A stretch of 64,000 nt of DNA from Candidatus Binatia bacterium. GTDB lineage: Bacteria > Desulfobacterota > Binatia > Bin18. How positions within the stretch are numbered: the stretch's first letter is position 1; every line of letters begins with the position of its first letter. Positions 58,461 to 63,294 of the stretch are shown here, one piece after another. Under the pieces are notes generated by a model. That model ran no database searches and was not told the origin of the DNA. It was given only the letters and a program-made list of their open reading frames with translations. The DNA lies in assembly GCA_963422435.1 (NCBI GenBank), contig OY729511.1:549420-613419 (forward strand). The letters run 5' to 3'. The position numbers were made by a program, and so were the translations under genes.

Positions 58461-59591
58461 CTACAGGCCAAAGAAGGTGGCCGCATTCTCCCCCAGGATT
58501 TTGTTGACCGAGGCTTCGGGCAGACGAGCCAGCGATGCGCGCGTTTTCTTGACCGGCTCGGTAAAGCCTTCGGCATGGGGATAGTCCGAGCCCACAAAAA
58601 ACTTGTCGTCTCCAACCAGCTCAACCATATGCGGCAGGGTGCGTTCGCTCGGGTCGGCGGAAATCCAGATGTTGCGCGCAAAGTATTCACTGGCCGGTCG
58701 CTTCATCTGGCAGGTGTGACCCATATAGCTGAACCGATAGTCCAGCCGGTCGAGCCACTCGGCCACCCAGCCGCTGGCCGATTCAATCGTGGCGACCCGC
58801 AAGCGCGGGAAACGCTCGAACACGCCGTCATAGACCATGGTGGTGAGGGCCATGCGCGGGTCTTGAATGACGTTCATGCTGAGAAACATGAAGCCGGGAT
58901 CACGGTCGCTATACCATTCGTTGCCGATGTATTTTGCATGGACCACCAGGTGCAGTCCAACGGCAATGTCGCACTCTTGGGCCGTTGCCCAGACGGGATC
59001 AAAGTCCGGATGGCCAAAGCTTTTACCATCGATAGGCAGGGCGCCGACAAAGACCCCGCGCACGCCGGCTTTGGCCAACTGCCTGATCTCCTCAACCGCC
59101 GCGGCAGGGTTGCGCAATGAGATATGGCCCAGGGGATAGAGACGGTCCAGACGCCCCTGACAGGTTTCAACCGCCCAACGGTTATAGGCGCGGCAATGGG
59201 CCGCGGCGAGGTCCGGGTCTTCAACCAGGTCCTCCCACAGCAAGCCCAGGGTGGGGTAGATAAACTGGCCTGCTATCCCTTCAACATCAAGGAAGCGGAT
59301 GCGCTGCTCCATGTCCTCGAGCGAATGGCTGAACGCCTGCGTCCAGTCGAAGGACTTCAGCCCCTGGCCTGATTCTTTTTGGCCATAGCCGACGGCAACA
59401 CCCAGGAGTTCTTCGATGCTGAGATCGCCGGAGTGATCAACCCGCACATCTTCAACCGCGACCGCATACCGGTTTTTTTGGGGGTCGCGTTCAAACCGCA
59501 AGCAGCGCGAGCGATACTGGGGATCGATATGCTGCTCCCACAGATCAAGCGGTTCCATAAAGTGACTGTCCGCATCAATAATACGCGTCAT
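58461..59591 (-). CDS. Amidohydrolase family 2 protein
   Basis: IDADSHFMEP, IYPT and GSDYPH. Confidence 0.9.
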   Translation of the reverse strand: MTRIIDADSHFMEPLDLWEQHIDPQYRSRCLRFERDPQKNRYAVAVEDVRVDHSGDLSIEELLGVAVGYGQKESGQGLKSFDWTQAFSHSLEDMEQRIRFLDVEGIAGQFIYPTLGLLWEDLVEDPDLAAAHCRAYNRWAVETCQGRLDRLYPLGHISLRNPAAAVEEIRQLAKAGVRGVFVGALPIDGKSFGHPDFDPVWATAQECDIAVGLHLVVHAKYIGNEWYSDRDPGFMFLSMNVIQDPRMALTTMVYDGVFERFPRLRVATIESASGWVAEWLDRLDYRFSYMGHTCQMKRPASEYFARNIWISADPSERTLPHMVELVGDDKFFVGSDYPHAEGFTEPVKKTRASLARLPEASVNKILGENAATFFGL

Positions 59592-59790
59592 GGCTTCTCT
59601 CCTTATAAGCGCTTCCGACTGCTCGCCAGCCTGGAAAGCGCCTGGATGGACGTTAGCGCGCCCAGCCGAACCCGGTCAAGGGAAAACAGCGGAGCCAGAT
59701 GGCTGAGCTGCCCTTTCCACAGGGCGGCCCCCACAAAGAGGGCCGTGAGGACAAATACAAGGCCGCCAACTAGGTGAGAATACCACGGCC

Positions 59791-60828
59791 CTAACGGTAC
59801 AACGGTTGCAGGTCCTGGGCGAGTTCCGCCAGGTCGGGGGGGCCGACAATGAGGCCGTCTTTGACGATCTGTTCGCCGTCGAGCCAGAGCGACTGCTTGG
59901 ACAGCACCGCGTCGGGATGGTTCTCGCCACCGCCGGGCATCCAGAACGGCAGACCCAGGCCGACCGCGTTATAGCCCAGCACGCGCTGGTCCTCAAGAAA
60001 ACAGTTGCCCGTGTAACGCGCCGCCGGATGGATGCCGCAGGTGAAGTGAATGATATAGCCCAACCCCTCGCCGCTGGCCCGCCGCAGCGAACGTTCCAGC
60101 ACAGTTCCCTCGGCCACACCGCCCGACACGTCCTGCACGGTACCGTCTATGGTCAGACTGATCGGCTCTTCCAACGGGGTGTAGTACTCGTGGAACACGG
60201 TGTCGAACTTGACCACGCCTTTGACCGAGTCTTCCTTGGGCATAATCATGACCGTGCCGGGGACAAACAGGGCACCCGGTCCGCTGGCCCGACCCGTGCT
60301 CATGGCCATGGGATCACTAATGGTGAAGCTGACATCCGTGCCGACCGGGTTGGTAATCCGGCCCTGAGCGCCCTTTTTCTCGACCAGCAGGGCGTCAAAG
60401 GCTTTGGTGACGGCAAACAGGGTGTCCAGATTGACCTTGCCAAACAGTCTGACCGTGGACTCGGCGTTCAGACCCGCGGCCAGATAATAGCGGGTGCGCT
60501 TGTTCTGCATGGCCGTATCAAAGGCGTGCGAGCCGGCCATATAGGGGAAGGTCAGGTCTATCCATACGTCACAGTTTGCAACCGCGGCCCGGACCGGGTC
60601 GGAAATATAAGGATCGCCCAGCGCGCCCTGAAAGGGCAGTTGCGGAGCAATGAGCAGGGCCACCAGCGTATCCAGCCTGCGCGCCGCGTTCTGGATGGCC
60701 TCAACCGTTTGCATATCCGAAGCCGTATCCGCGGTGATCAGCACGGTTTCACCCGACTGCACCAGCAGGACATCACGGATCATGGCGTCCGCGGCTTGGG
60801 TGAGTTCCGGTCCGAGATTAGTCATCAC
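59791..60828 (-). CDS. NicX-like/M29-fold protein (second intact paralogue)
   Basis: VQSGETVLITAD, ITNPVGTD, IHFTCG and NHPD (His...HxD). Confidence 0.7.
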   Translation of the reverse strand: MMTNLGPELTQAADAMIRDVLLVQSGETVLITADTASDMQTVEAIQNAARRLDTLVALLIAPQLPFQGALGDPYISDPVRAAVANCDVWIDLTFPYMAGSHAFDTAMQNKRTRYYLAAGLNAESTVRLFGKVNLDTLFAVTKAFDALLVEKKGAQGRITNPVGTDVSFTISDPMAMSTGRASGPGALFVPGTVMIMPKEDSVKGVVKFDTVFHEYYTPLEEPISLTIDGTVQDVSGGVAEGTVLERSLRRASGEGLGYIIHFTCGIHPAARYTGNCFLEDQRVLGYNAVGLGLPFWMPGGGENHPDAVLSKQSLWLDGEQIVKDGLIVGPPDLAELAQDLQPLYR

Positions 60829-62031: not shown

Positions 62032-62115
62032 GGCTCTCTCCTTGGGTAATCAGTGGCCAGGGGGACTGCGGTGTTGTCAGGGTTCCCTCCTTCTGCCTGC
62101 CTGTCTGAGCGTACC

Positions 62116-63294
62116 TCAGCCCATCAAGCCCTCATCGTACATGCCCCGAATGGGTTGTTTTTCCGCAAAACGGCTCAAGCGAAAGGCGTCGATATCCGCG
62201 CCCGGTTGCTTGCCGTTGATAATCAACTCAGCCATCATCTCGCCCACCGCCGGGGCCAGCTTGAAGCCGTGGCCGCTGAATCCGACGGCCATATACAGTC
62301 CGTCTATCCCCGGTACGGCGTCCAGAATGGGATGCCAGTCGGGCATGACATCAAAAAATCCCGAGTAGCCGCTGTGGAAATAGCCGGTCTCAAAGCGCGG
62401 AAAGCGATGTGTGACATGGCCCGTCATCTCAACCGTTCTGTCGTAGCTGACGCCGTGATCGTAGTGATCGGGGTCGACCCGATCGTTGAGCTCAATCGGG
62501 TCCAGCGAACCCACCAAGGTCAGGTCCGCGCCCTCGGGCCGGGTGTAGACCTGGCTGACGAAGTCGTAAAACAGGGGATGCTGCTCGGCGGCCTCGGCGG
62601 GCCGTTTGACAAAACAGATATTGTGGCGGCAAACGGTCAGGGGAATCGCCACCTCCACCATGGCTGCAATCCGATCGCCCCAGGCGCCGGCCGCGTCAAT
62701 GACCGTTGGTGTGGAAAAGCGTCCTTTATTGGTGACCACCTCGGCCACCGCTCCGCCCACCAGTTGGAGGCCGATGACCTCGGTCCCTTGATGAACCCGC
62801 ACGCCCAGCTCGCGTGCCCGGCGGATAAAGGACGAGGTAGTGTCGGATGGGTCGGCGTAGCCGGAGTCCGGCTCCCAGGCCCCGCCGGCCAGGTCGTCCA
62901 CGCGCGTGCGCGGTTCGATTTCACGGATTTCTTCGGGAGAGATCAGGCGGGTGTTGATCCCGACGCGGCGTTGCATGGCTACCACGTTTTTGAGCGCTGC
63001 GAGGTCCTGCTCGGGGACGCCCATCAAATAGCCCGTTCGCGTAAAACCGGCCGACCCGCCGACCACATCGCCGAAGTTTTCAAACACGTCCAGACTGCGC
63101 AGGACCATGCGCGCGGTCACCTCGGTTGAATAGTGTTGGCGAATACAGGCCGCGCTTTTGCCGGTTGCCCCGGAGGCAATAAAGTTTTTCTCCAGGACGA
63201 CGACATTGGTGACGCCCCGTTTGGCGAGATTGCACGCAATACTCGATCCCGTCACACCTGCACCGATAATCACGACATCCGCTGTGTGGGCCAT
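62116..63294 (-). CDS. FAD-dependent amine oxidoreductase (sarcosine oxidase beta/DadA-like)
   Basis: VIIGAGVTG, ATGKSAA, DWHPILD and GFSGHGFK. Confidence 0.9.
   Translation of the reverse strand: MAHTADVVIIGAGVTGSSIACNLAKRGVTNVVVLEKNFIASGATGKSAACIRQHYSTEVTARMVLRSLDVFENFGDVVGGSAGFTRTGYLMGVPEQDLAALKNVVAMQRRVGINTRLISPEEIREIEPRTRVDDLAGGAWEPDSGYADPSDTTSSFIRRARELGVRVHQGTEVIGLQLVGGAVAEVVTNKGRFSTPTVIDAAGAWGDRIAAMVEVAIPLTVCRHNICFVKRPAEAAEQHPLFYDFVSQVYTRPEGADLTLVGSLDPIELNDRVDPDHYDHGVSYDRTVEMTGHVTHRFPRFETGYFHSGYSGFFDVMPDWHPILDAVPGIDGLYMAVGFSGHGFKLAPAVGEMMAELIINGKQPGADIDAFRLSRFAEKQPIRGMYDEGLMG

Follow-up and report, generated by a model that had tools for sequence, protein, structure and literature searches.

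Do four genes that stand in one row on the same strand also work in one pathway? This question was raised by the genes at 58461-63294 of a 64,000-nucleotide stretch of DNA, here called the window, which comprises positions 549420-613419 of the genome G000 (G000:C1:549420-613419). The genome is a single contig of 3.92 Mb and is 98.6% complete, and its close relatives are metagenome-assembled genomes (MAGs) labelled Candidatus Binatia. An earlier reading of the letters alone (the sequence-only reading) had proposed that the four genes form an operon for the catabolism of an N-methylated alkaloid. It was verified that the row exists as described: four minus-strand open reading frames (ORFs) occupy 58461-63294 exactly. 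They encode the FAD-dependent amine oxidase/dehydrogenase DAO_B (62116-63294, 392 amino acids; PF01266, E 5e-70), the alpha-only Rieske non-heme iron oxygenase Rieske_B (60862-62031, 389 amino acids; PF00355 and PF00848, Ring_hydroxyl_A), the distant NicX family (PF26233) member NicXl_B (59791-60828, 345 amino acids), which has an M29-like fold and a putative Fe(II) triad H261/H304/D306, and the PF04909-fold protein AH2_B (58461-59591; Amidohydro_2, E 6e-25), a predicted dinuclear (diiron-type) oxygenase. From DAO_B to AH2_B the intergenic gaps comprise 84, 33 and 199 bp. Purifying selection acts on each of the four, with pairwise dN/dS values of 0.07-0.10 (18-22 orthologues), and thus they are real and functional. 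The analyses described below led to the view that the row is probably a composite, in which a cassette for the hydroxylation and cleavage of a pyridine-type ring is embedded in a separate, genus-specific oxidative operon.

The conservation of the row was analyzed within the genus. Orthologues of NicXl_B and Rieske_B are present in 21 of the 27 congeners, and DAO, Rieske and NicXl genes are co-inherited in the same number. In the species G219 DAO_B is intact but both the Rieske and the NicXl gene are pseudogenes, in G214 DAO_B is broken, and G213 has kept the first three genes and has no AH2_B orthologue. None of the four genes is found in G110 and G216, both of which are 100% complete. In G203 and G210 (loci L111 and L112) DAO_B (75%) is directly followed by a gene of the LLM family and by AH2_B (77-78%), and neither a Rieske nor a NicX-like gene is present. 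These two loci are colinear with those of the other species and have only 161-167 bp where the others hold 3.5 kb with the Rieske/NicX-like pair. In the lineage of G214, G220 and G223 a gene for a MetX-like hydrolase lies between DAO_B and Rieske_B; its product is 77-78% identical to that of L032, the nearest relative of the pair outside of the genus, indicating that the cassette comprises three genes there. Additional Rieske_B-like/NicXl_B-like pairs, one or two per genome and in the same gene order, were observed in G221, G204 and G201 (L026, L027 and L029; 52-65% identity). They are flanked by ARO (amidohydrolase-related dinuclear oxygenase) and LLM genes and by a convergent Rieske_A-like gene, and G000 does not have such extra copies.

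The close spacing of AH2_B turned out to be peculiar to the window. In every other relative 1.15-11.5 kb separate NicXl_B from AH2_B. This interval always includes an F420-type LLM gene (TIGR03619, F420-dependent; 223 bits versus a cut-off of 167), which ends 16-28 bp before AH2_B, and sometimes also permease and protease genes. A blastn comparison with L031 revealed a deletion scar in the intergenic stretch at 59592-59790: the 880-bp LLM gene was cleanly lost at about 59626-59628, while the sequence that precedes this gene in the relatives is retained at 59628-59730. On the other side of AH2_B the relatives have a gene for an 826-aa AceE-like TPP enzyme, which has collapsed in the window by several internal deletions. 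An in-frame remnant of 104 amino acids is left (58115-58429, minus strand), which can be aligned with the relative's protein only at residues 1-54 and about 431-463 of the latter. The genome G000 has a size of 3.9 Mb, versus 4.6-5.2 Mb for most congeners. The loss of the LLM gene and the collapse of the TPP enzyme gene have thus brought AH2_B to within 199 bp of NicXl_B, so that the row resembles one operon; in a reduced genome adjacency can stem from deletion and not from shared function, which is a trap for annotation. A scan for promoters and terminators found no more sites than in shuffled sequence and was silent on co-transcription.

The abundance of some of the families in G000 was also taken into account. 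The genome encodes 41 paralogues of the PF04909/AH2 type (ARO-like), 54 luciferase-like (LLM) proteins (mostly F420-type), 12 Rieske alpha subunits and seven large subunits of Mo-hydroxylases. Of random sites in the genome, 11% have an AH2 gene at a distance of up to 5 kb, and the same is true of four of the 12 Rieske genes. Because AH2 genes are so abundant near random sites, the proximity of one of them is weak evidence for a functional link.

As a next question, it was asked which part of the row occurs outside of the genus. When 200 genomes of the phylum and 60 relatives were searched, the pair turned up within the genus only, and among about 300 genomes searched no other genus of the family, class or phylum had either of the two proposed units. 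A metagenome scan with a narrower subfamily alignment (A2) returned 80 loci, and adjacency was counted for the 54 of them with less than 80% identity and at least 1 kb of upstream DNA. In 38 of these 54 the NicX-like gene is preceded by a Rieske_B-like gene on the same strand that ends at most 250 bp before it, with a median gap of 51 bp. In several further metagenome loci the Rieske gene lies just downstream of the NicX-like gene, and the adjacency with the Rieske gene in front was also found in an alphaproteobacterial MAG. DAO_B and AH2_B stand beside the pair exclusively in loci of the same genus. Even L032 (81-83% identity) has neither, and its neighbours of the pair are of peptidase/amidase types (M55, Amidohydro_1, deacetylase). 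The sequence-only reading had regarded the four genes as a single operon that should be conserved as a unit; beyond the genus only the succession of Rieske and NicX-like gene has been kept, and the claim had to be given up.

The neighbours of the pair were clustered and representatives were annotated, which revealed two recurrent contexts. In a tightly packed marine context the genes encode an enoyl-CoA hydratase (ECH), the Rieske oxygenase, the NicX-like protein, a MetX-like a/b hydrolase, an amidase (PF01425), a Rieske ferredoxin, a maleate cis-trans isomerase, which matches 4FQ7 at E 2e-79, and an MFS transporter. The ECH-to-MFS operon is carried by the marine contigs L046, L050-L052 and L062, and in several of its genes stop and start codons overlap. 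In the second context the pair is followed by a CoxM-like FAD subunit, a CoxS-like 2Fe-2S subunit and a Mo large subunit, often together with another a/b hydrolase. Both contexts fit a succession of ring hydroxylation, cleavage, deformylation, deamidation and isomerisation, the same logic as in the nic and pic pathways (10.1101/530550). For the pair, the context of its relatives (hydrolase, amidase, isomerase, Mo-hydroxylase) therefore agrees with the sequence-only reading as regards the oxidative breakdown of a nitrogen-containing ring; the emphasis on N-methyl compounds and betaines could not be upheld.

A comparison with known systems underlines both likenesses and differences. The maleamate pathway (NicX-NicD-NicF-NicE) is mirrored in the marine relatives, in which hydrolase, amidase and maleate isomerase genes lie beside the dioxygenase gene, but not in the window. 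A pyridine carboxylate is the substrate of the pic cluster in Alcaligenes faecalis JQ135 (bioRxiv 10.1101/530550), in which a Mo hydroxylase and a Rieske oxygenase are also encoded together with a PF04909 protein and a NicX-type dioxygenase. However, PicB is a Rieske system of the alpha/beta type with four components, whereas Rieske_B is an alpha subunit alone, and PicC is a decarboxylase, whereas AH2_B carries the motifs of ARO oxygenases. In addition, equivalents of picE, picF and picG are missing from the cluster of the window, and the four-gene row does not include a Mo enzyme. A literature search found no paper that describes a pair of a Rieske oxygenase and a NicX-family protein.

Catabolism of the pyridine ring is understood from few model pathways (nic, pic and nicotine), in which 2,5-dihydroxypyridine is the product of flavin or Mo enzymes. 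A search with NicXl_B against the local Pfam copy, which does not include PF26233, gave no match, and more than 500 homologues of NicXl_B carry the precomputed family PF26233, named NicX in the Atlas. An alignment-based AlphaFold (AF2) model was obtained with a pLDDT of 94 and a pTM of 0.91, and a Foldseek search with it had NicX (7CN3) as the top match (E 3e-21, TM 0.72; two-domain M29-like fold), followed by the M29 aminopeptidases PepS, AmpS and AmpT. A single-sequence phmmer search with NicXl_B did not find NicX; the profile of the NicXl_B subfamily matched 7CN3 in the PDB (E 1.7e-11) but none of the M29 peptidases.

In NicX the Fe(II) is bound by His265, Ser302, His318 and Asp320, and the substrate is positioned by His105, Glu177 and His189 (PMC7910607). 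These residues were mapped onto NicXl_B through a true NicX orthologue that is also encoded in the window (50969-52075, minus strand; E 2e-93 to 7CN3). H261, H304 and D306 of NicXl_B are invariant in 41 sequences and align with H265, H318 and D320 of NicX. NicX Ser302 aligns with Leu/Gly in a stretch (NAVGLGLPFW) that is devoid of Ser and Thr. The invariant R282 pairs with the positioning residue Arg293 of NicX in the MAFFT alignment, but not in the HMM alignment, and the subfamily has extra conserved acidic and histidine residues (H213, E214, E279, D280 and E302). NicXl_B thus shares the fold, the family PF26233 and the His/His/Asp triad with NicX, PicD and Hpo (PDB 7CN3, 7CUP; PMC7910607), while it is only about 20-25% identical to NicX. 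Its gene is preceded by a Rieske oxygenase gene, that of NicX by the gene for the flavin hydroxylase NicC. We read NicXl_B as a NicX-type iron enzyme with a substrate that would differ from that of NicX. The family is small, with 743 matches at E<=1e-3 and 31 at E<=1e-30 in 1.84 billion representatives, and the subfamily comprises about 30 clusters at 50% identity.

Rieske_B contains the cluster motif CxH...CxxH (C90-R-H...C-P-Y-H) and the iron motif DxxHx4H (D217-IY-H220-IAVL-H225). Its best NCBIfam match is GbcA, with 158 bits far under the cut-off of 670, and its nearest structure is CntA (E 6e-41, alignment spanning residues 25-363). With CntA, GbcA and Stc2, which belong to group V, it has the alpha-only architecture in common. 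Group V Rieske oxygenases are enzymes for quaternary amines and are characterized by a bridging Glu (CntA E205), a cation-pi aromatic residue (Y203) and often a CxxC motif (PMC7948474, PMC10952381). In Rieske_B the bridging residue is Asp217 instead of Glu205 (PMC7948474), Leu215 is found instead of Tyr203, and Ile occupies both positions of the Cys206/Cys209 pair (PMC10952381). The 35-odd Rieske proteins that partner NicXl_B-type genes in the fetched loci all have the sequence ENL(T/M)D(I/F)YH in common. In contrast to the CntA and GbcA systems, no CntB/GbcB-type reductase gene adjoins the gene of Rieske_B. As the hallmark residues of group V are absent, the proposal of a betaine demethylase-like protein that N-demethylates its substrate failed.

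The last gene of the row, AH2_B, had been taken for an amidohydrolase. Its nearest structures are 4DZI, PtmU3, DitZ and the SfbO series. The signature of an ARO consists of DxH in the N-terminal and DxPHx(D/E) in the C-terminal part, and the characterized hydrolases and decarboxylases with a PF04909 fold do not have the DxH (PMC13154177). Both motifs are present in AH2_B, as D8-S9-H10 and D336-Y-P-H-A-E341, and thus the protein is most likely a hydroxylase of the ARO type and not an amide hydrolase. The PF04909 fold and both motifs are common to AH2_B and the AROs PtmU3, DitZ, SfbO and AibH2 (PMC13154177), and the variable residue of the DxH is Ser, as in the diiron-type PtmU3. A difference is that no Rieske ferredoxin gene adjoins that of AH2_B. 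The family names of the sequence-only reading thus held for the DAO-type, Rieske and M29-fold/NicX-like proteins, while "amidohydrolase" holds as the name of a fold and the hydrolysis of an amide does not agree with the DxH and DxPHxE motifs (PMC13154177). PF04909 "amidohydrolases" that bear these motifs are oxygenases, and the family name is a further annotation trap. A type like that of the PF04909 hydrolases and decarboxylases PicC, LigI and ACMSD is made improbable for AH2_B by the DxH (PMC13154177), and a PicC-like decarboxylase that feeds NicXl_B was dropped as a candidate in view of the ARO motifs. A paralogue of AH2_B, AH2_A (47181-48368, plus strand), has the motifs DGH and DFPHWD and is 35% identical to it.

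DAO_B has the FAD motif GxGxxG as GAGVTG (residues 11-16). Its best structure match is 1Y56_B (E 6e-57), which was deposited as "sarcosine oxidase" and which we take to be the beta subunit of the L-proline dehydrogenase of P. horikoshii. It shares the DAO fold and the FAD motif with the family of archaeal-type L-proline dehydrogenase beta and sarcosine oxidase beta subunits, but, unlike in these systems, no genes for alpha or gamma subunits adjoin it. All its NCBIfam matches are below the equivalog cut-offs, and no orthologues outside of the genus were found among the genomes searched.

Based on these results the following mechanism is proposed. One unit of the row would be a mobile cassette of two genes, or of three in some relatives, in which the Rieske oxygenase would hydroxylate an N-heterocycle of the pyridine or pyridone type and the NicX-family Fe(II) enzyme encoded directly downstream would open the ring. 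In the relatives the ring-opened product could then be taken to fumarate by the a/b hydrolase, amidase and maleate isomerase encoded there. The other unit would be a genus-specific oxidative operon for the DAO-type amine oxidase, the F420-type LLM, the ARO (AH2_B) and the AceE-like TPP enzyme; between the DAO and LLM genes most species of the genus carry the cassette. It is quite possible, and is suggested here tentatively, that the NicXl_B subfamily consists of ring-cleaving dioxygenases for a heterocycle other than 2,5-dihydroxypyridine, e.g. a carboxylated or N-substituted dihydroxypyridine or a pyridone. This substrate would be made by the upstream Rieske monooxygenase, and the pair would constitute an undescribed entry to maleate and fumarate in marine and soil bacteria that has been grafted into a DAO/F420-LLM/ARO operon in Binatia.

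Several observations weigh against this mechanism. The whole genome G000 has no homologue of the maleate isomerase (best E 0.57), and neither a hydrolase or amidase gene adjoining the pair nor a ferredoxin or reductase gene in the cluster was found in it; the downstream route of the marine relatives is thus absent from G000. The residues that correspond to His105, Glu177 and His189 of NicX are replaced in NicXl_B (Ser177; Leu/Phe at the His189 position), and since the pocket is not conserved, the substrate is probably not 2,5-dihydroxypyridine itself. As neither unit was found outside of the genus among the relatives searched, the direction of the 3.5-kb indel could not be polarised, and the cassette may have been inserted or, in G203 and G210, lost. 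The tight spacing of DAO, Rieske and NicXl genes (84 and 33 bp) and their co-inheritance in 21 species are compatible with co-transcription and a functional link, and paralogues of AH2/ARO and LLM also occur near the paralogous Rieske-NicX loci of the genus.

These last points lead to an unlikely alternative, namely that all four proteins belong to one working pathway of the genus. The cassette would have become fixed within the DAO-LLM-ARO operon because DAO, ARO, Rieske and NicX-like proteins act on one substrate family, e.g. a cyclic or N-alkylated amine: DAO would oxidise the C-N bond, ARO and Rieske oxygenase would hydroxylate, and the NicX-like enzyme would open the ring. The common strand of all four genes, the short gaps between the first three, their joint inheritance and the purifying selection on each gene agree with such a pathway, as do the ARO and LLM paralogues that lie beside the paralogous loci and beside the true NicX gene 8 kb away. 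However, DAO and AH2 genes never accompany the pair outside of the genus, not even in L032, genes were lost independently in G213, G214 and G219, and in the relatives unrelated permease and protease genes can lie in the interval between NicXl and AH2. The numbers of AH2 and LLM genes in G000 and the share of random sites with an AH2 gene nearby, both given above, also speak against it. It is even less probable that NicXl_B is an M29-like metallohydrolase, which would act on the product of the Rieske oxygenase by cutting an amide or peptide-like bond. Several features agree with such a hydrolytic role: M29 aminopeptidases are the second-best fold matches, five extra acidic or histidine residues are conserved, and the Ser ligand and the pocket of NicX have not been kept; the pair in L032 moreover has peptidase- and amidase-type neighbours. 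Nevertheless, the sequence profile found NicX and no M29 peptidase, the two His and one Asp are the Fe(II) set of NicX, and the maleate isomerase and amidase genes downstream in the marine operons fit a ring cleavage that ends as maleate.

Very improbable is the route of the sequence-only reading, in which an N-methylated betaine or pyridinium alkaloid would be N-demethylated by the Rieske protein, the secondary amine oxidised by DAO, the ring cleaved by the NicX-like protein and an amide cut by the amidohydrolase. The nearest characterized relatives of Rieske_B are indeed CntA, GbcA and Stc2, and relatives of DAO_B oxidise sarcosine, N-methyl amino acids and proline. Yet the group V hallmarks are missing from Rieske_B and from all 35-odd Rieske partners of NicX-like genes (PMC7948474, PMC10952381), AH2_B has the motifs of an oxygenase and not of a hydrolase, and the four-gene unit is not conserved. 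Homarine and trigonelline, which had been named as possible substrates, are served by flavin systems of the TgnAB/HomAB type in the published pathways, and thus by other enzyme families (PMC13236597). Two known systems were also tried as matches of the row and were rejected, i.e. the hom operon for homarine (PMC13236597) and the riboflavin/lumichrome pathway (PMC12746152), both of which use other enzyme families.

The claim of a four-gene "operon" in the window is largely ordinary and in part wrong. The conserved pair of a Rieske oxygenase and a divergent NicX protein, which occurs in a large number of uncultured bacteria of marine, freshwater and soil origin, is a candidate way to feed and open an N-heterocycle. 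A good experimental entry point to the cassette is the marine operon from ECH to MFS.

At a distance of 8 kb from the row the window carries a second, paralogous module (47181-54613), which comprises AH2_A, an unannotated ORF of 346 amino acids (plus strand), Rieske_A (minus strand), the NicX orthologue and a divergent large subunit of a Mo-hydroxylase. Rieske_A has a Glu bridge (NELYH), and no small subunits are encoded near the Mo large subunit. At 43719-46897, beside these N-heterocycle genes, an ABC transporter of the molybdate/tungstate type (PBP_like_2, ABC ATPase) and a regulator with HTH_17 and PBP_like domains are encoded. Upstream of DAO_B a divergent gene of the FAD disulfide-oxidoreductase family (Lpd/MerA-like; NF004991, 803 bits versus a cut-off of 620) starts at 63517 on the plus strand, runs to the end of the window at 64000 and continues to about 64968; it is syntenic across the genus. 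Genes for DyP-type peroxidases at 41461-42381 and 56594-57526 flank the region, and the second of them is syntenic with YfcE and YfbR in all congeners.

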